From the NCBI GenBank assembly GCA_965203165.1, contig OZ241849.1, positions 367,583 through 431,582 on the forward strand: 64,000 bases of DNA. The letters are read 5' to 3'. The stretch comes from Dehalococcoidia bacterium (GTDB lineage Bacteria > Chloroflexota > Dehalococcoidia > Bin125). The position numbers and the translations under genes were made by a program. The notes under the pieces are model-generated. The model did not search any database. It was not told the origin of the DNA and worked only from the letters and a program-made list of their open reading frames with translations. Below, one piece after another: positions 1 to 52,283 of the stretch (its first letter is position 1; the number at the start of each line of letters is the position of its first letter).

Positions 1-387
1 GTGATCGCGCCCAGCAATCCGTTTCTTTCGATTGACCCGCTGCTTGCCGTCCGCGGCGTCCGCGAGGCGGTGAGCGAATCCAGCGCGCCGGTCGTCGCGA
101 TCAGTCCGATCATCGGCGGCGCGGCGGTCAAGGGGCCGGCGGCCGAGATTCTGGCCAGTCTGGGGCACGATGTGTCGGCGATCGGCGTCGCGCGGCTCTA
201 TGCGAAGCTGGCCGATGTGTTCATCATCGACGAGCAGGACGCCGCGCTCACCGGCCGAATTGAAGCGGAGACCTCGCTGCGCTGCCTCGCCGTGCCCACG
301 CTGATGAGCGGTCCCGCCGAAAAGCGCGCGCTGGCCCGCGCCGCCCTGCAGGCCGCGCAAGATGCCGCCCGGCGGGACGCGCGATGA
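1..387 (+). CDS. cofD: 2-phospho-L-lactate transferase (F420 biosynthesis), 5'-truncated by window edge
   Basis: APSNPFLSIDP and SPIIGGAAVKGPA motifs typical of the CofD C-terminal half; overlaps cofC start. Confidence 0.85.
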   Translation: MIAPSNPFLSIDPLLAVRGVREAVSESSAPVVAISPIIGGAAVKGPAAEILASLGHDVSAIGVARLYAKLADVFIIDEQDAALTGRIEAETSLRCLAVPTLMSGPAEKRALARAALQAAQDAARRDAR

Positions 388-1058
388 CGCTCGCGGTCGA
401 GGGCGAAATCGTCGCGCTGGTGCCGGTGCGCGGTCTGCCCGCCGGCAAGCGGCGGCTCGCCGCCGCGCTCAGTGTCGAGCAGCGCAACTCGCTGGTCCGC
501 GCGATGCTCGACGATGTCGTCGCGGCGCTCTTGCAGGCCGAGCTGGTCGACCGAGTCGCGATTTGCAGCCGCGACGCCGCAGCGCACGAGGAGGCCGACC
601 GACTCGGCGTCGACTTTCTCGACCAGGCCGATCAGCGGCCCGGCTACAACGGGGCGGTGGCGCGCGCGCAGGCGGACCTGGCGGACGCCGCGGCGCTGCT
701 GGTCGCGCCCGCCGATGTGCCGCTGATCACGCCCGACGCCGTCGACCTGCTGATCGCTTCCGCGCCCGAGGGCGAGGCGGTGGTGGTCGCGCCGGCGCAC
801 AACGGCGGCACTAACGGTCTGTTTCTGTGCCCACCGGGCGTCATTCGGCCCGCGTTCGGCCCGTCGTCGGCGCGCGCGCACGCCCAGGCCGCCGCCGCCG
901 CGGGCGCAGCTGGCGTGCCCTTCCGCGAGGCGCGGATCGATGTCTGGGCGTACGACGTCGATACGCCCGCCGACCTGGATCTCCTGGAGGCCGTGCTGCC
1001 CGAGCTCCCCGAAGCGATCGCGCCCAACACGCGCGCCTGGCTCAATCAGCAGCGCTAA
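384..1058 (+). CDS. cofC: 2-phospho-L-lactate/PEP guanylyltransferase
   Basis: VPVR..GKRRL, AMLDDV, PADVP, GGTNGL, FGPSS, DVDTPADL motifs; adjacent to cofD. Confidence 0.88.
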   Translation: MTLAVEGEIVALVPVRGLPAGKRRLAAALSVEQRNSLVRAMLDDVVAALLQAELVDRVAICSRDAAAHEEADRLGVDFLDQADQRPGYNGAVARAQADLADAAALLVAPADVPLITPDAVDLLIASAPEGEAVVVAPAHNGGTNGLFLCPPGVIRPAFGPSSARAHAQAAAAAGAAGVPFREARIDVWAYDVDTPADLDLLEAVLPELPEAIAPNTRAWLNQQR

Positions 1059-1103
1059 ATTGACTACCATTGGAGTCGAGCGAGCCCGCAAGGAGACGCG
1101 CCG

Positions 1104-1406
1104 ATGACGACCCAGCACTCCACCGTCGCCAGCGATCCCGGGGCGAAGCCCCCGCCCGAAACGCCCGAGGAGCGGGCGGCGGCTGTGCGAGCGCACCGGC
1201 AGGCGTACGACAACATGGAGTACCTGCTCGAGATTCTTGATGACTTGGAGCGCGAGCACCCGGGACGGCTCGTGTTGGTCTACGGCGACCGTCAGGTCCT
1301 GATCGGCGATGACGGCTACGCGATGAAGCAATCACTGTCCGACGCGGATCGCAAGGGGACGGCGTTCCTGCCTATCGGCCCGTGGACTGAGTACGAGGCT
1401 CGGTAG
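1104..1406 (+). CDS. small DUF5678-like protein, array copy A1
   Basis: AGGAG RBS; LEREHPGRLVLVYGDRQVLIGDD resembles the DUF5678 pattern; four paralogs follow. Confidence 0.6.
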   Translation: MTTQHSTVASDPGAKPPPETPEERAAAVRAHRQAYDNMEYLLEILDDLEREHPGRLVLVYGDRQVLIGDDGYAMKQSLSDADRKGTAFLPIGPWTEYEAR

Positions 1407-1410
1407 CGCT

Positions 1411-1878
1411 TTGCAATTTCGCGGCGTAATCCGGCCATCGCGGAGGCTACCGCACGGGATCGTCAGCGGCGGCGCTCCCCTGCTAAAGGTTCAATTGGCC
1501 GTCGCAGGGCGCCGGGATGATATCTGGTTCCTAATCGGTGCCGATGCCACTGTGCTGCATCCCGCCGACGCTCAATCGTTGCTCGCCGGCGATCTTCAGA
1601 GGATCGATTTTGGGCGTGATCCTTACCGTGTCGCGGGCTTTGGCGTCGGCGGCGGGGCTGATCGAGTGGTTCGCGACGCGACGCTGACACTGCGTTCGGT
1701 GGACGACGAACTCTACGCAGTGGAGATGCCCATCCTGATTGCGCGGCCGACACCGGCGGAGCCGGGCGATCATGGCAACTGGCGGTTGCCCAGCCTGCTG
1801 GGGCGCGACTTTCTGCGGCACTTCCGTTTCGAGCTGTTCTGCGGCGAGCGCCGCGAGGCCACCATCGAGACGCTCTAG
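1411..1878 (+). CDS. retropepsin-like (clan AA) aspartic protease P1, catalytic DT dipeptide deleted
   Basis: LLGRDFLRHF motif present; FLI-GADAT versus FLIDTGADAT in paralogs. Confidence 0.7.
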   Translation: MQFRGVIRPSRRLPHGIVSGGAPLLKVQLAVAGRRDDIWFLIGADATVLHPADAQSLLAGDLQRIDFGRDPYRVAGFGVGGGADRVVRDATLTLRSVDDELYAVEMPILIARPTPAEPGDHGNWRLPSLLGRDFLRHFRFELFCGERREATIETL

Positions 1879-1945
1879 AGTGGGGAGCGGTGGTCTGATC
1901 GGTCGGGTATCCTGAAGGTGCTCAGCCGCAGCAAGGAGACGCGCA

Positions 1946-2266
1946 GTGACGACGGAGTCCTCAACGTTCACAAGCGATCCGTGGGCCAAGCCCGTGCCGC
2001 CCCCGCCCGAAACGCCCGAGGAGCGGGCGGCGGCTGCGCGCGCGCATCGGCAGGCATACGACAACATGGAGTATCTCGACGAAATCTTCGACGACCTACT
2101 GCGAGAACATCCCGGCCGGCTCGCGCTGGTCTACGGCGATCGTCAGCTCCTGATCGGCGACGACGGCTACGCGATGAAGCAATCGCTGACCCAAGAAGAG
2201 CGACCGACGGCGACGCTCCAGCGAATCACGAAGTGGTGGATCCGGCATTGCGGCGAGCCCGAGTAA
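1946..2266 (+). CDS. small DUF5678-like protein, array copy A2
   Basis: paralog of A1; GTG start with AAGGAG RBS. Confidence 0.6.
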   Translation: MTTESSTFTSDPWAKPVPPPPETPEERAAAARAHRQAYDNMEYLDEIFDDLLREHPGRLALVYGDRQLLIGDDGYAMKQSLTQEERPTATLQRITKWWIRHCGEPE

Positions 2267-2270
2267 CGCC

Positions 2271-2744
2271 GTGCGGTTTCGCGGCTACGTTCATCCGATC
2301 CGCACCCTTCCGCACTCGGTCATCAGCGGCGGCGCGCCGCTGATCAAGGTCAGCCTGGCGCTGCAAGACCGCAGCGATGATGTCCGGTTTCTCATCGACA
2401 GCGGTTCCGACGCGACGATTCTGCACCCCACCGATGCGCAATCCCTCCTCGGCGATGATCTACACAGGATTGACTTTGAGCGCGACCCGCGTCGCATCGC
2501 GGGCATGGGCGTTGGCGGCGCCGCCGATCGGGTGGTTCGCGACGCGACGCTCACGCTGCGCTCGGTGGCCGGCGAAACCTACCCGATGGAGATGCCGATT
2601 CTGATTGCGCGCCCGATGCCGGCAGAGCCGGGCGACCACGGCAACTGGCGGTTGCCCAGCTTGCTGGGGCGCGACTTTCTGCGGCACTTCCGCTTTGAGC
2701 TGTTCTGCGGCGAGCGCCGCGAGGCGGCGCTGGAGACACTCTGA
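2271..2744 (+). CDS. retropepsin-like aspartic protease P2
   Basis: FLIDSGSDAT catalytic motif and LLGRDFL. Confidence 0.8.
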   Translation: MRFRGYVHPIRTLPHSVISGGAPLIKVSLALQDRSDDVRFLIDSGSDATILHPTDAQSLLGDDLHRIDFERDPRRIAGMGVGGAADRVVRDATLTLRSVAGETYPMEMPILIARPMPAEPGDHGNWRLPSLLGRDFLRHFRFELFCGERREAALETL

Positions 2745-2802
2745 TCGGCGTGCGTCAGAGCGAGTATCGTAGAGGCATCCACCCGCAGCGAGGAGGCGCG
2801 CG

Positions 2803-3123
2803 ATGACGACGGAATCCGCAACGTTCGCGGGCGACCCGTGGGCGAAACCAGCTTCGCGCCCGACCGAGACGCCGGAGGAACGGGCGCGAGCGGGCCGTGC
2901 GCTTCTACAGGCATACGACAACATGGAGTATCTCGACGAAATCTTCGATGATCTGCTCAAAGAGCATCGTGGCCGCATCGCGCTGGTCTACGGCGATCGT
3001 CAGCTTCTGATCGGCGACGACGACTATGTGATGGAGCAGTCGCTGACCGAAGAGGAGCGGGAAACGGCGACGCTGCAGCTGATTACGGAGTGGTGGATCA
3101 GGCACTGCGGCGAGCCCGAGTAG
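2803..3123 (+). CDS. small DUF5678-like protein, array copy A3
   Basis: paralog of A1/A2; AGGAGG RBS. Confidence 0.6.
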   Translation: MTTESATFAGDPWAKPASRPTETPEERARAGRALLQAYDNMEYLDEIFDDLLKEHRGRIALVYGDRQLLIGDDDYVMEQSLTEEERETATLQLITEWWIRHCGEPE

Positions 3124-3127
3124 CGCC

Positions 3128-3601
3128 GTGCGGTTTCGCGGCTACGTTCATCCGCTCCGCACCCTTCCGCACTCGGTCGTCAGCGGCGGCGCCGCTCGGA
3201 TTCGGATCACGCTGATGTTGCAAGGCCGCAGCAGGGACATCCGTTTTCTGATCGACACGGGCGCAGACGCGACAGTCTTACACCCGCGCGACGCATATCG
3301 CCTCCTTGGCGGCGATCTACACAGGATCGATTTTGGGCGCGATTCTTACCGTGTCGCCGGGCTAGGCGTCGGCGGCGGCGTTGATCGGGTGGTTCGCGAT
3401 GCGACGCTGACGCTACGTTCGGTGGACGACGAGACCTACCCGATGGAGATGCCGATTCTGATTGCGCGGCCGACGCCGACGGAGCCGGGCGACCATGGCA
3501 ACTGGCGGTTGCCCAGCCTGCTGGGGCGCGACTTCCTACGGCACTTCCGTTTCGAGCTGTTCTGCGGCGAGCGCCGCGAGGCGGTGCTGGAGACGCTTTG
3601 A
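3128..3601 (+). CDS. retropepsin-like aspartic protease P3
   Basis: FLIDTGADAT and LLGRDFL. Confidence 0.8.
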   Translation: MRFRGYVHPLRTLPHSVVSGGAARIRITLMLQGRSRDIRFLIDTGADATVLHPRDAYRLLGGDLHRIDFGRDSYRVAGLGVGGGVDRVVRDATLTLRSVDDETYPMEMPILIARPTPTEPGDHGNWRLPSLLGRDFLRHFRFELFCGERREAVLETL

Positions 3602-3658
3602 TCGGCGCGCATCGGAGCAGGTATCGTAGAGGCATCAGCCACAGCGAGGAGGCGCGCG

Positions 3659-3973
3659 ATGACGACGGAATCCGCAACGTTCGCGGGCGACCCGTGGGCG
3701 AAACCAGCACCGCGCCCGGCCGAGACGCCGGAGGAGCGCAAGGAGGCCGGCCGACGCCAGCGGCAGGCGTACGACAACCTGAGGTACATGGACGAGATCT
3801 TTGACGACCTGCTCAAGGAGCACCGCGGCCGGCTGGTGGCGGTCTACGGCGATCACCAGGTGCTGGTTGGCGACGACGGCTACGAGATGGAGCAGTCGCT
3901 GACGCAGGAGGAGCGGGATACAGCCGTGTTCATGCCCATCTCGAAGTGGTGGCTCCGCTACGGCGAGGAGTAG
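3659..3973 (+). CDS. small DUF5678-like protein, array copy A4 (no protease follows)
   Basis: paralog; AGGAGG RBS; next gene is another small-gene copy. Confidence 0.6.
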   Translation: MTTESATFAGDPWAKPAPRPAETPEERKEAGRRQRQAYDNLRYMDEIFDDLLKEHRGRLVAVYGDHQVLVGDDGYEMEQSLTQEERDTAVFMPISKWWLRYGEE

Positions 3974-4031
3974 AGCAGCGTGCGACGGAGCGGGTATCGT
4001 AGAGGCATCAGCCACAGCGAGGAGGCGCGCG

Positions 4032-4337
4032 ATGACGACGGAGTCTTCAACGTTCGCGGGCGATCCATGGGCGAAGCCAGCGCTGCGCCCGGCCGAGACG
4101 CCGGAGGAGACCGCGCGCATCACTCGCCGCGCGCGAAAGAACATGGCGCACCTCGACGAAATCTTCGACGACCTGCTTGAGCAGCATCGCGGACGGCTCG
4201 TCATCGTCTACGGTGATTGCCAGGTGCTGATCGGCGACGACGGCTACGAGATGAAGCAATCGCTCACCGAAGACGAGCGCAAGGGCTACGTGTTCCTGCC
4301 GATCTCGCCCTGGTGGATCCGGTACGGCGCGGAGTAG
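4032..4337 (+). CDS. small DUF5678-like protein, array copy A5
   Basis: paralog; AGGAGG RBS. Confidence 0.6.
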   Translation: MTTESSTFAGDPWAKPALRPAETPEETARITRRARKNMAHLDEIFDDLLEQHRGRLVIVYGDCQVLIGDDGYEMKQSLTEDERKGYVFLPISPWWIRYGAE

Positions 4338-4340
4338 GCC

Positions 4341-4814
4341 GTGCGGTTTCAGGGTGATGTTCTTCCGACCCGGACCCTTCGACACTCAATGATCAGCGGC
4401 GGCGCGCCTCTGATTCAGATCGCCGTGGCGCTGGAAGATCGCAGCGATGATATCTGGTTTCTGATTGATACTGGCGCAGATGCCACGGTCTTGCATCCCG
4501 CGGATGCTCAATCGCTGCTCGGCGATGGTTTGCACAGGATCGATTTTGGGAGCGATCCCTATCGCGCCGCAGGTCTGGGCGTCGGCGGCGGCGTGGAGCG
4601 CGTCGTTCGCGATGCCACTCTCACGCTGCGCTCGGTGGACGACGAGACCTACCCGATGGAAATGCCGATTCTGATTGCGCGGCCGATGCCGGCGGAGCCG
4701 GGCGACCACGGCAACTGGCGGCTGCCCAGCCTGTTGGGGCGCGACTTTCTGCGGCACTTCCGCTTTGAGCTGCTCTGCGGCGAGCGTCGCGAGGCGGCGC
4801 TGGAGACGCTCTGA
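4341..4814 (+). CDS. retropepsin-like aspartic protease P4
   Basis: FLIDTGADAT and LLGRDFL. Confidence 0.8.
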   Translation: MRFQGDVLPTRTLRHSMISGGAPLIQIAVALEDRSDDIWFLIDTGADATVLHPADAQSLLGDGLHRIDFGSDPYRAAGLGVGGGVERVVRDATLTLRSVDDETYPMEMPILIARPMPAEPGDHGNWRLPSLLGRDFLRHFRFELLCGERREAALETL

Positions 4815-4824
4815 GGCTGTCGCG

Positions 4825-5991
4825 CTAGATGCGCGGTAGGCCCAGGCCGCGCTGTGCCATGATGTTGCGCTGCAGCTCGTTTGCGCCTGCGCCGAAGGTC
4901 GGCATTACGGCGGCCATGTAGCCGTTTGACGCGCTGCCGTCGATCGGCGCGCGGGGGTCGCCCGGCTCGAGCTGGCCGTAGAGACCCATCGCGTGCAGCG
5001 AGAAGTTTTGCAGCCGCTGCATCATCTCGGTGCTGAACACCTTGACCTGGCTCGCCTCGTAGTTGGGGCTCTCGTCGCGCTTCAGCATGTCCAGGATGCG
5101 GTAGGAGAGGTGCTGCAACACCTCGATTTCGATCCGGTAGTTGGCCAGCCCATTGCGGATGCCCTCGTCCTCGATCGCGCGGCCGGCCGGGCCGGCGGTG
5201 CGCGCCCACCCGATCAGCTGATCGTAGACCGCGCGCACGCCGGACACCGTGAAGATCGAGATCCGCTCGCGATCCAGCGCGTGCGCCGCGTAGTACCAAC
5301 CGCGGTTCTCCTCGCCGACCAGCGCCTCGGTCGGCACCCGCACATCCTCGAAGTAGACCTCGTTGGTGCGGTAGCCGGGCATCGTCCAGATCGGCTTGAC
5401 GGTGATTCCGCTCGACTTCAGGTCGACCAGCATCATCGAGACGCCGCGGTGCTTGGGCGCGTCGGGATCCGTCCGCGTCGCGAGCCAGACGTACTCCGAG
5501 CGATGCGCGCCCGAGGTGAAGCGCTTCGTGCCGTTGAGGATGTAGTCGTCGCCGTCCTTGACCGCGCGCAGCTGCAGCGAGGCCAGGTCGCTGCCCGCGT
5601 CGGGCTCGGTGTAGCCCAGCGCGAACTCGACCTCGCCGCGGGCGATCGGCGGCAGGAAGCGATCGCGCTGTTCGTCGGTGCCGAAGCGCATCAGCGTCGG
5701 GCCGACCTGCTGCGTGGCGACGGTCGCCTGCGGCGCGCCGACGTAGTTCATCGCCTCCCAGAAGAGGTACTGCTCCTCAAGCGAGCGTTCCTGCCCGCCG
5801 TATTCGGCCGGCCAGGACATCGTCAGCCAGCCGCGCTCCGCGAGCAGCTGGCGGAAAGCCCGCTCATCCTCGAATGTCTCAGTCTGCGGATCGCCGATCC
5901 TGGCCCGCAGCTCGGGCGTCCATTCGGCGTTGAGAAAGTCCTTGACTTCCGCCTCGAAGGCGAGAGCCTGCTCGCTGAAGTGGTATTCCAT
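4825..5991 (-). CDS. acyl-CoA dehydrogenase family protein
   Basis: YTEPDAGSDLASL, NGTKRFTS, GEENRGW, GANELQRNI; start reassigned to MEYHF at 5991. Confidence 0.92.
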   Translation of the reverse strand: MEYHFSEQALAFEAEVKDFLNAEWTPELRARIGDPQTETFEDERAFRQLLAERGWLTMSWPAEYGGQERSLEEQYLFWEAMNYVGAPQATVATQQVGPTLMRFGTDEQRDRFLPPIARGEVEFALGYTEPDAGSDLASLQLRAVKDGDDYILNGTKRFTSGAHRSEYVWLATRTDPDAPKHRGVSMMLVDLKSSGITVKPIWTMPGYRTNEVYFEDVRVPTEALVGEENRGWYYAAHALDRERISIFTVSGVRAVYDQLIGWARTAGPAGRAIEDEGIRNGLANYRIEIEVLQHLSYRILDMLKRDESPNYEASQVKVFSTEMMQRLQNFSLHAMGLYGQLEPGDPRAPIDGSASNGYMAAVMPTFGAGANELQRNIMAQRGLGLPRI

Positions 5992-6019
5992 TGTTCCGCT
6001 CCATCGGATTGGCCCGTGC

Positions 6020-7444
6020 TCAGGCGGGCCCCGGCTTGTTCGGCGCGACACGCGCAATGTACGACACGACCGCGGCATTGAGTCCGTTGGTGAGTCCGTT
6101 GGGCGCGGCGGCGGCCCGGCTGGGCGCTTCGGGCGGCGGCGGAGCAGTCGCGGCGGGTGTGGGCGGGTGCTGCGGCACGCGCGCGCGCAGGATCACCGGG
6201 CGCAGCACGATCAGCCCCGCCAGGACGGCCAGCACGACCCAGGACATCGGCGGGAAGAGCGTCTCCATCGTCAGCCACTCCGCCACCATGCCCAGCGGCA
6301 GCGCGACCAGCTGCGCCATGCCCATGCCCAGGAAGACCAGCCCCATCACTCGCCCGCGCATCTCGTTGGGCGCCACGTAGGCGATGATCGCCGCCGAGGA
6401 GACCATCGCCATCGACATCCCGGTGCCGAGCAGGTAGTTGCCCAGGATCGCGTTGAGCGCGGTGGGCATCAGCGTGAAAACGACGAAGCCCAGCGCCATC
6501 ACGATCACGCCCGACGCGGTGAGCAGTCCTTTGCGCTCGATCCAGGAGAAGCGCACCAGCACCGCCGAGGCGAGCATCGCGCCCAGACCCCAGAACACGG
6601 CGATGAAGCTGAACTGCGACCAGGTCGCGCCGACCACCGTCGTCACCCAGTGCGGGCCGAGCGAGCCGGTCGGCGGCATGATCAGCGTCATCATCAGGAT
6701 CACCGCGGCGACGGTCCAGAGGATCACCGGCTGCGACGCGGTGTAGCGCAGCCCGGCGGCGATGTCGCGGAAGGCCTGCCCCGCGCCGCCCCGCTGCGAC
6801 GCGCGATGCGCCGCCGAGAAGACCGTGCGGTAGGACATCATCGCCAGAATCAGGATCTCGCCGAAATGCCCGAACGAGGAGATCGCGTAGACCGTGCCGT
6901 GCCCGAGATAGTCGATCAGCAGTCCGGAGGCGATGATCGCGATTGGCATGGCCAGCGACATCGCGGCCGAGTTGAGCGCGATCCCGGCCGGCGTCAGCCG
7001 CGGCCCGAGGATTTCCGGAGCGATCGCGTTGCGCGTCGGCCCGTCGATGGCGTGCGCCGCGGAGGCAAGCGCGGTGAAGCCGAAGAACAGCGCGACGGCG
7101 TAGATATCCGACGCGCCCAGCCACATCATCACGGCGATTGCCAGGTTGGCGGTGAAGGCCAGCGCCTGAGTCGCCATCAGCAGGCGGCGGCGGTCGAAGC
7201 GATCGGCCAGCGCGCCGCCGAACAGCCCGAAGCCGACCATTCCGAGGCCGCGAATTGTGCTGATCGCGGCGATCATCACCGTCTCGTTTTCGTCGGCGAT
7301 CATCTGGATCCAGGCGATCGCGGTGACGAATTGGAGCGGCATCATGCTCTGGCCGACGATGAAGCCGCCCAGCAGCAGGCGGAATTCGCGCAGCCGCAGC
7401 GGCTCCAGCATCCCAGGACGCGAGGTGGGCGGCGCGGCGCTCAT
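6020..7444 (-). CDS. MFS transporter
   Basis: GGALADRFDRRRLL motif A; multiple hydrophobic helices. Confidence 0.88.
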   Translation of the reverse strand: MSAAPPTSRPGMLEPLRLREFRLLLGGFIVGQSMMPLQFVTAIAWIQMIADENETVMIAAISTIRGLGMVGFGLFGGALADRFDRRRLLMATQALAFTANLAIAVMMWLGASDIYAVALFFGFTALASAAHAIDGPTRNAIAPEILGPRLTPAGIALNSAAMSLAMPIAIIASGLLIDYLGHGTVYAISSFGHFGEILILAMMSYRTVFSAAHRASQRGGAGQAFRDIAAGLRYTASQPVILWTVAAVILMMTLIMPPTGSLGPHWVTTVVGATWSQFSFIAVFWGLGAMLASAVLVRFSWIERKGLLTASGVIVMALGFVVFTLMPTALNAILGNYLLGTGMSMAMVSSAAIIAYVAPNEMRGRVMGLVFLGMGMAQLVALPLGMVAEWLTMETLFPPMSWVVLAVLAGLIVLRPVILRARVPQHPPTPAATAPPPPEAPSRAAAAPNGLTNGLNAAVVSYIARVAPNKPGPA

Positions 7445-43474: not shown

Positions 43475-43551
43475 TGGTGGGCGATACTGGACTTGAACCA
43501 GTGACCTCCGCGATGTCAACGCGGCGCTCTAGCCAACTGAGCTAACCGCCC
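43475..43551 (-). tRNA. tRNA-Val(GAC)
   Basis: GGGCGGTTAGCTCAG...TTGACAT...GGTTCAAGTCC...CGCCCACCA on the minus strand. Confidence 0.95.
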
Positions 43552-44256: not shown

Positions 44257-44332
<76 letters not shown>

Positions 44333-44358: not shown

Positions 44359-44443
44359 GGGGAAGTGTCGGAACTGGTAGACGAGCATGATTTAGAATCA
44401 TGTGCCGAAAGGCGTAGGAGTTCGAGTCTCCTCTTCCCCACCA
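44359..44443 (+). tRNA. tRNA-Leu(TAG)
   Basis: GGGGAAGTGTCGGAACTGGTAGAC...TTTAGAA, long variable arm, CCCCACCA. Confidence 0.95.
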
Positions 44444-52017: not shown

Positions 52018-52283
52018 GGTCGTGCTAGGCGGGGAGCTAGCGGTGCCCTCCACCTGCAATCCGCTCCAGCAGGGCTGAATTCCGGCCTGAGGGCTACGTC
52101 ATGACCCCTACCGACGCCAAGTGGTGTTGAAGCCTGGGTCCCGCGCGGCGAGCCACCGTGAACCCCGTCAGGTCCGAAAGGAAGCAGCGGTAAGCGGGCG
52201 GTTTCGGGTGACGCGGGAGCGCCTGGGCGGAGCCGGCTAGCGGCGGCAAGCTCATGGCGGCGTTCGACGGCAGGTGCACGGCC
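52018..52283 (+). ncRNA. ffs: signal recognition particle RNA, long (Alu-domain, Bacillus-type) form
   Basis: CGTGCTAGGCGGGGAGCTAGCGGTGCCC...GCAATCCGC...AGCAGGG Alu part; CAGGTCCGAAAGGAAGCAGC S-domain; ends pair (GGTCGTGC/GCACGGCC). Confidence 0.92.

Follow-up and report, generated by a model that had tools for sequence, protein, structure and literature searches.

Tandem pairs of a DUF5678-like gene and a retropepsin-like protease gene in a Dehalococcoidia bacterium: a candidate inhibitor-protease module

What could an array of five small acidic genes interspersed with four genes for retropepsin-like aspartic proteases be doing between cofC and the gene of an acyl-CoA dehydrogenase, and how did it arise? 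The array lies near the start of a 64,000-nucleotide stretch (hereafter the window, to which positions refer) of the genome of a Dehalococcoidia bacterium (assembly GCA_965203165.1, contig OZ241849.1, positions 367,583 to 431,582 of the forward strand). We call the small gene of each unit A and the protease gene P. The single-domain retropepsin-like proteases of bacteria and archaea are a barely studied group in which few members have a known role, and the prokaryotic single-domain forms of clan AA are little known according to a 2009 survey (PMC2642776). The comparisons presented here indicate that A-P is a conserved and widespread two-gene module, apparently undescribed.

The array comprises nine open reading frames (ORFs), all on the + strand, on which the ORF listing, a repeat search and direct reading agree. 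All nine lie where the initial annotation of this DNA had placed them, between the same two flanking genes.

Unit 1 leader, 1059..1103, + strand: carries an AAGGAGA Shine-Dalgarno sequence and aligns with the four inter-unit spacers
A1, 1104..1406, + strand: 100 aa, DUF5678-like partner, pI 4.80
P1, 1411..1878, + strand: 155 aa, TTG start, retropepsin-like, catalytic Asp-Thr missing through a 6-nt in-frame gap, no Pfam match
A2, 1946..2266, + strand: 106 aa, GTG start, orthologue in the sister species G002
P2, 2271..2744, + strand: 157 aa, retropepsin-like protease with DSG
A3, 2803..3123, + strand: 106 aa, the modelled copy (AlphaFold2; predicted local distance difference test, pLDDT, 90.9), also used in the model of the complex
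P3, 3128..3601, + strand: 157 aa, retropepsin-like with DTG, the modelled copy (pLDDT 94.6); RVP 25.7 bits against a cut-off of 20.7; Foldseek match to 5c9f, E 1.1e-6
A4, 3659..3973, + strand: 104 aa, orphan partner without a following P
A5, 4032..4337, + strand: 101 aa, orthologue of the A of unit 1 in G002
P4, 4341..4814, + strand: 157 aa, retropepsin-like with DTG; Pfam RVP 23.1 bits against a cut-off of 20.7
cofC, 384..1058, + strand: left flank, outside the module; Pfam CofC, E 4.7e-22; the same flank is found in congeners with and without the array
Acyl-CoA dehydrogenase gene, 4825..6078, - strand: right flank, outside the module; three Acyl-CoA_dh domains (Pfam)

Successive A genes begin at intervals of 842, 857, 856 and 373 bp, in line with the initial annotation, and a repeat finder recovers direct-repeat families of 4-5 copies, 60-87% identical, with the same spacing. 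Identity to A1 is 59-70% across the five A proteins, and identity to P1 is 77-78% across the four P proteins. The acidic A genes of about 100 aa with strong ribosome-binding sites, also described at the outset, are found again: each start codon follows AAGGAGA or GAGGAGG ending 7-8 nt upstream, and the pI of the proteins is 4.4-5.0. P begins with TTG or GTG at 4, 4, 4 and 3 nt from the A stop, which reproduces the distances of 3-4 bp first given. Because P starts so close to the end of A and has no good Shine-Dalgarno sequence of its own, we may fairly infer translational coupling; in several relatives A and P are likewise separated by a few nt or overlap. A programmed A-P fusion or recoding was considered and rejected, as the frame offset is +1 in three units and 0 in one, and this inconstancy gives no hint of recoding. 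Scanned for promoters and terminators, the region gives a single promoter-like site, which lies on the minus strand, and no terminator, no more than shuffled sequences do. The 58-nt spacer between A4 and A5 (3974-4031) opens with GTGCG, like the P genes, then continues as the usual inter-unit spacer, and looks like the deletion scar of one removed P. This apparent origin of the orphan A4 by deletion had been overlooked, as had the missing catalytic Asp of P1.

By profile and by predicted fold, P is a clan AA retropepsin-like aspartic protease, in agreement with the initial annotation. In Pfam, P2-P4 give weak, consistent matches to RVP, gag-asp_proteas and Asp_protease_2; P2 stays under all cut-offs, and P3 and P4 alone pass that of RVP. 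The scores of P on NCBIfam TIGR03698 and TIGR02281 are far under the cut-offs. A profile of 29 family members matches the protease of feline immunodeficiency virus (FIV) over nearly the whole chain (E 1.4e-6), with DTGAD, the GVGG flap and LLGRD aligned. The catalytic motif (LIDSGSD in P2, LIDTGAD in P3 and P4) is nearly invariant in these 29 members, and the GVGG and PSLLGRD of P, which align with GVGG and LLGRD of the FIV enzyme, are conserved among them. The AlphaFold2 model of P3 (predicted TM-score 0.87) has 185 Foldseek matches at E<=1e-3, of which APRc of Rickettsia (5c9f_A) is the best, followed by the proteases of FIV, Rous sarcoma virus and human immunodeficiency virus (HIV). Compared with these viral enzymes of about 100 residues, the model has extra N-terminal strands (residues 2-19) and extra C-terminal strands.

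The D(T/S)G motif initially ascribed to the proteases is present in P2, P3 and P4 and absent from P1, which reads LI--GADATV where the other copies read LID(T/S)G(A/S)DATV. Two codons are missing in frame, and the catalytic Asp is thus kept in three of the four proteases of the assembly. Since the catalytic Asp-Thr has gone with this 6-nt gap, P1 is probably inactive. Six extra bases are present at 1532-1533, within P1, in metagenome contigs of X3 and of X1 (in the latter at depth 128 of 188), which read FLVDIGAD. The loss of the Asp therefore seems specific to the present assembly or strain, other strains seemingly having an unusual D-I-G.

A is, by profile comparison, a diverged relative of DUF5678 (PF18929). 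The early suggestion of such a likeness is upheld at the level of profiles, though the copies in the window fall under the Pfam gathering cut-off of 23.2 bits: A4 alone matches the model (12.9 bits, E 0.1), and a paralogue elsewhere in the genome (locus D) reaches 21.1 bits, also below the cut-off. Six of 35 diverse A-family members match PF18929 at E<=0.1 (best E 7e-8). Of 1.84 billion representatives searched with the A profile, 889 match at E<=1e-3 and, at the stricter E<=1e-10, 70; six longer matches were scanned, and PF18929 scored 109.8, 62.2 and 47.3 bits in three of them and 20.0 bits, under the cut-off, in a fourth. PF18929 is found in 26-50% of the members of the Atlas clusters nearest to A (score 0.86-0.87), which is a lead only. 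The model of A3 begins with a disordered segment (1-23). Its long helix spans 24-54 and its beta hairpin 59-71; then come two short helices, a strand at 90-93 and, at the very end, a further short helix. This fold has no Foldseek match at E<=1e-3 (best E 1.3), the best Z of a wide VIA-align search is 3.4, and a profile search of PDB sequences with A gave nothing under E 0.065.

The end of A is conserved in character and varies in sequence. Three hydrophobic residues (e.g. ALIL, ALLL, WIL) end 64 of the 130 relatives of single-domain size, against 8.0 +/- 2.7 after shuffling; in the second phylum discussed below, the A ORFs located before a protease mostly finish with GGW or AGW, often FGGW; and the copies in the window have WWIR or WWLR a few residues from the end, or PWTEY in A1. 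Some relatives are fused. The representative search returned tandem DUF5678 proteins, among them a triple tandem, as well as FHA joined to DUF5678 and a cluster of 4 A-P fusions, from 4 contigs, that have DPA instead of DTG; the fused forms, which include A-P and PhdYefM-like fusions, are P0192, P0198, P0301 and P0196. Among them, the distant relative P0198 has a PhdYefM-like N-terminus (24.2 bits, below the cut-off) and two DUF5678 domains. A dedicated search for longer fused forms of A found none, which is weak evidence.

Is the pairing of A with P peculiar to this array? The 3.3 Mb genome to which the window belongs has five further loci:

Locus B: A, truncated P, A
Locus C: A, A, A, P
Locus D: A, P
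Locus E: A-P; fused double A followed by a frameshifted P; A-P
Locus F: P alone, apparently intact

A stands directly upstream of P in 10 of the 11 P genes of this genome, and at locus F there is no A remnant upstream of the lone P (best E 0.22). In relatives, all 32 P genes (20 loci, 16 genomes) have an A directly upstream on the same strand; these loci were picked by their P match alone and annotated with iterated profiles, the A profile having been trained on the same set of sequences. Among 41 related genomes, 17 have both A and P, one has weak A matches alone, none has P alone and 23 have neither, a count that is descriptive because related genomes are not independent. A scan for loci with a narrow alignment returned five, of which two are false (within an acyltransferase-like ORF), one is cut by the contig end, one is ambiguous and one reads A, A, P. 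Close homologues number roughly 150 for P and 50 for A.

The linkage extends well past this group. The PF18929 model has matches in 35 of 201 Chloroflexota genomes, in 27 of them over the cut-off. Of 30 such loci, 19 are small ORFs, and 18 of these directly precede an ORF with DTG or DSG and a later hydrophobic-hydrophobic-Gly, the exception being L068. Ten of these 18 downstream ORFs were compared with Pfam, and all ten match aspartic-protease families (E 4.7e-8 to 1e-2), seven of them over the PF13650 cut-off. At the other 11 loci (L056-L058, L066, L072, L073, L075, L077, L079, L080 and L082) the match lies inside an ORF of 460-590 aa of another protein, where no A or P profile matches; these ORFs may encode a large protein of no relation, one segment of which resembles DUF5678. 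At one Chloroflexota locus (L087, 1328-1825 and 1980-2360) a PIN-domain gene (Pfam E 2.4e-9) lies just 5' of the DUF5678 gene and the downstream protease seems degraded. A second phylum was sampled as a set of 251 genomes around one labelled Acidobacteriota. PF18929 is matched in nine of them (a tally that includes G391), with up to 7 matches per genome, and a protease-like ORF lies directly downstream in 18 of 27 distinct DUF5678 loci (G391 excluded); ten of ten downstream ORFs examined match PF13650 (E 1.2e-6 to 2.3e-3), five of them over the cut-off.

How the array came about can be read from its relatives. The cofC site holds five A and four P genes here, three units in G002 (one P frameshifted), four units in G007 and just one A in G006. 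Three further congeners (G003, G004 and G005) have an empty site, a gap of about 290-700 bp that gives no match to the A or P profile. The trees pair A2/P2 and A3/P3 one-to-one with orthologues in G002 and group A5 with the A of unit 1 there; the P tree has no row for orphan units or for P genes with a frameshift. A second array is common to G001 and G007, unit by unit. One-to-one orthologues across species imply that the duplications predate the species splits and that the diverged units were retained. Mean synonymous divergence (dS) among the paralogues of the window is 0.66 for P and 0.86 for A. In P codons 106-157 dS drops to 0.34, against 0.7-1.3 elsewhere, which suggests partial homogenisation of the 3' half of P. 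Non-synonymous divergence (dN) averages 0.036 in these codons, and dN/dS peaks at 0.61 in codons 81-106 of A and at 0.50 in codons 1-36 of P, with 0.11-0.21 elsewhere, so the uniform C-termini of P and the variable N-termini of P and C-termini of A pointed out initially are borne out. By its patchy, multi-copy distribution the module is accessory DNA.

Would A and P bind each other? When two copies of P3 were co-folded with one of A3, the interface score ipSAE of the A partner was 0.87, 0.84 and 0.87, with 0.00 for the best of 3 controls. In the calibration of the method, 58 of the 80 solved complexes attain this mark, as do 2 of the 110 mismatched pairs. The pLDDT of the partner does not fall below 76, and 61% or more of the contacts are common to the runs. 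The most confident contacts place the helix (30-45) and strand (86-93) of A on residues 5-9, 24-26, 37-39, 54, 97 and 101 of the first copy of P. A also touches the second copy at D43, G45-A48, V50, 76-80, R87, L111 and L131, which we take, judging by the proteases of HIV and FIV, to be the catalytic loop, the flap and the cleft wall. The variable C-terminal region of A falls in this modelled interface, and the sites that vary among the five A paralogues are enriched there (26/34 against 37/72 elsewhere, Fisher p 0.019). The model supports direct binding of A to P. The initial annotation had proposed that A is an inhibitor, adaptor or substrate of P; binding, with part of A at the catalytic Asp and flap of the second protomer, stands as far as the co-fold goes, which does not separate an inhibitor from a substrate.

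We consider, with middling confidence, that A and P are a cognate inhibitor-protease pair, toxin-antitoxin-like and amplified in tandem. Four arguments favour this. First, the modelled complex has part of A in the cleft. Second, the distribution is patchy and multi-copy. Third, decay is one-sided: the broken copies seen are all P (P1, the truncated one of locus B, the frameshifted one of locus E, one each in G002 and G007, and those of L070, L074 and L078), a count biased by the greater length of P and by the difficulty of detecting a broken short A. Fourth, A genes without P are common (A4, locus B, locus C, G006, L043), and lone P genes are rare (one in 11 in the genome of the window, at locus F, and none of 32 in the loci of relatives). 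The proposed mechanism would run as follows: 1) each unit would be a two-gene operon in which the small acidic A is translated first and the cytoplasmic P by coupling; 2) A would bind its cognate P, its long helix (~27-45) and C-terminal strand (86-93) docking, in the model, on the N-terminal strands of one protomer; 3) another part of A, which we suspect to be its conserved hydrophobic C-terminal tail, would lie by the catalytic Asp and flap of the second protomer, within its substrate cleft; 4) P would thus stay inactive until A is removed, as in type II toxin-antitoxin pairs or where a protease is encoded together with an inhibitor dedicated to it; and 5) the array would have arisen by tandem duplication of the unit at the cofC site, the copies diverging mainly at the A-P contact while the 3' half of P was partly homogenised. 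Inhibition, harm by free P and any part played in conflict or defence are our inference.

Several points weigh against this reading, besides the bias in the count of broken genes. First, the complex is a prediction, and the calibration counts hold only roughly for it because custom family alignments and three chains were used, unlike in the calibration set. Second, the model lists both residues 17-22 and 97-102 of A as interface and leaves the segment in the cleft unspecified, and it fits an inhibitor and a substrate alike. Third, variable sites of P are not significantly enriched at the interface (15/31 against 41/126, p 0.14). Fourth, the dN/dS analysis suggested by the initial annotation, done here by segment, gave values below 1 in every part of A and P, at most 0.5-0.6. 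The expanding panel of specificities that it had envisaged is supported only in part: the units are old and kept one-to-one in the sister species. Fifth, a DNA-binding domain is present in most type II antitoxins, and no family of that kind was found in any A with Pfam or NCBIfam. Sixth, the P at locus F is apparently intact without an adjacent A, and a toxin there would need cover from a paralogous A. Finally, P3 has no tblastn match in plasmid and phage collections, A and P have none in PADLOC, and in PHROGs A4 alone matches, to an uncharacterised family (E 0.041), so that nothing in these collections links the module directly to mobile or defence DNA.

The co-fold cannot tell an inhibitor from a substrate, and the processing of A by P therefore stays a serious rival, which we nevertheless judge unlikely. 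In that case A would be a substrate or precursor, trimmed, for instance at its conserved disordered N-terminus or its C-terminal tail, to release or activate a product, and the arrays would be panels of precursors. A segment of A in the substrate cleft suits a substrate as well; the disordered 23 N-terminal residues are conserved within the array (dN/dS 0.18); A is the more numerous, with 5 A and 4 P here and 3 A and 1 P at locus C; and the orphan A genes could be served by paralogous P. Against this, A has a compact, confidently folded domain that is conserved across two phyla while its tails differ between subfamilies, and peptide precursors usually show the reverse. No modification, export or receptor genes accompany the pair in the loci read, and the large docking surface modelled on the N-terminal strands of P exceeds what a substrate needs.

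An obligate partner need not inhibit: A could be an activator, adaptor or assembly chaperone of a harmless regulatory protease, as in the case of RimB in RimABK. Tight linkage and modelled binding would fit any such partner, the lone P of locus F looks intact, and the characterised bacterial A2-family peptidases involve other protein factors, according to PMC11957791. What makes this improbable is a distribution that is patchy even within the genus, with the site empty in three congeners, and a P count that reaches 11 loci in a single genome of 3.3 Mb, P pseudogenes being frequent, a poor fit to a housekeeping regulator; nor would an adaptor be expected over the catalytic Asp and flap, where the model puts A.

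That the array is an artefact, strain alleles of a single A-P unit concatenated during assembly, is hardly credible, even though short metagenome contigs break inside it, none of those examined spans the whole stretch and some join unit 1 to unit 5 (e.g. 1151 to 4080 and 1599 to 4536, run X3), since the units differ by 13-40% in DNA, far past the difference of strain alleles, as is their dS of 0.66-0.86, the independent assemblies of two other species have arrays at the same cofC site, with orthologues of A2/P2, A3/P3 and A5 in G002, and the unit-specific flanks and the A4 scar are coherent. The joints across units, such as that from 1151 to 4080, may be copy-number variants or assembly chimeras. 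By their labels, the runs that contain part of 900-5000 of the window are metagenomes from sponges or the sea; they make up 17 rows from 7 studies, the best share of words being 0.42.

The surroundings of the array and of the other loci have features of their own. The array is flanked on the left by CofD (partial) and CofC, and on the right by the acyl-CoA dehydrogenase and then a major facilitator superfamily transporter, on the opposite strand. A short interspersed repeat, which has a small hairpin and a core roughly 58 nt long and gives spurious ORFs with SFLRRQE or VIPAQAG, has some 330 copies in the 3.3 Mb genome (e.g. C1:3022835-3022892). In the window it is found at about 15836, 49986, 50129, 63490, 63736 and 63979; it adjoins loci B, D and F and does not adjoin the array. 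Directly upstream of the A-A-A-P of locus C (C1:1090818-1091466, minus strand) are two small paralogous ORFs starting with MPIYEY(R/H)CP.C, which presumably resemble FmdB-type zinc-ribbon proteins. Elsewhere in the window, Rfam identifies a bacterial large signal recognition particle RNA (52020-52281) and three tRNA genes (43478-43551, 44257-44329 and 44359-44440), ordinary and unrelated to the array.

If the inhibitor-protease reading is right, it may reach beyond this locus. We tentatively propose, as a possibility on the doubtful side, that DUF5678 and retropepsin together form a new and widespread class of prokaryotic toxin-antitoxin or conflict modules. The toxin would be a cytoplasmic homodimeric aspartic protease, which the conserved free C-terminal tail of its partner would keep off by lying in the cleft like a tethered cleavage product, and the arrays would be sets of mutually insulated cognate pairs. 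With the tail of an upstream protein in the protease that follows, cells would then have their own equivalent of the Gag/transframe-protease arrangement known from retroelements. Should P do harm without its guard, aspartic proteolysis would join the mechanisms of toxin-antitoxin systems, and A would offer a natural protein inhibitor scaffold for retropepsins. A conserved partnership would give DUF5678 a first function and a subset of prokaryotic retropepsins a testable regulatory logic, and the array would be a natural specificity experiment, with four to five diverged cognate pairs side by side.

How does the module compare with known systems? The full-text literature searched yielded no description of a DUF5678-retropepsin pairing, in keeping with the initial statement that no characterised system of this composition was known to its author; most subscription journals and supplements lie outside its coverage, and a mention in a large toxin-antitoxin or defence screen is possible. 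The module shares with type II toxin-antitoxin systems 1) a small acidic first gene coupled to the second; 2) a multi-copy, patchy, accessory distribution; 3) direct protein-protein binding, here modelled; and 4) first genes that are often alone and second genes that are often broken. It differs from them in the absence of a detectable DNA-binding domain in A. To our knowledge no toxin family is an aspartic protease, and full-text searches on antitoxins, toxin-antitoxin systems and defence islands found none. Two other precedents concern the inhibition itself. In retroviruses, the tail of the upstream-encoded transframe polypeptide (p6*) can occupy the cleft of the protease, and in the staphopain-staphostatin pair a co-encoded inhibitor shields the cytoplasm from the cell's own protease. 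Here, in contrast, A and P are separate genes with a stop codon between them, and A has no sequence relation to those inhibitors.

Among retropepsin-like proteases of bacteria, APRc (RC1339) of Rickettsia conorii is the closest to P3 in structure (TM 0.69 on the target, 18% identity). It is reportedly membrane-associated, whereas P has no evident hydrophobic N-terminus on reading its sequence. RimB of Pseudomonas fluorescens is, like P, a cytoplasmic single-domain retropepsin-like protein that works with operon partners; it is set apart from P by pairing with RimK and RimA and trimming polyglutamate from RpsF, with no DUF5678 partner and no arrays (PMC11957791). RloA of Pseudomonas aeruginosa is also retropepsin-like and encoded with operon partners, but the Rlo proteins are secreted with signal peptides and are encoded alongside an ATP-grasp protein and a membrane protein of transglutaminase-like type, not DUF5678 (PMC12239564). 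In the texts consulted on RimB, Rlo and APRc, none is reported with DUF5678, and their partners and roles are others (PMC11957791, PMC12239564). Set beside these systems, the A-P pair is best described as a protease encoded next to its own dedicated partner, in a layout like that of toxin-antitoxin systems, and the window presents a striking tandem amplification of this pair.

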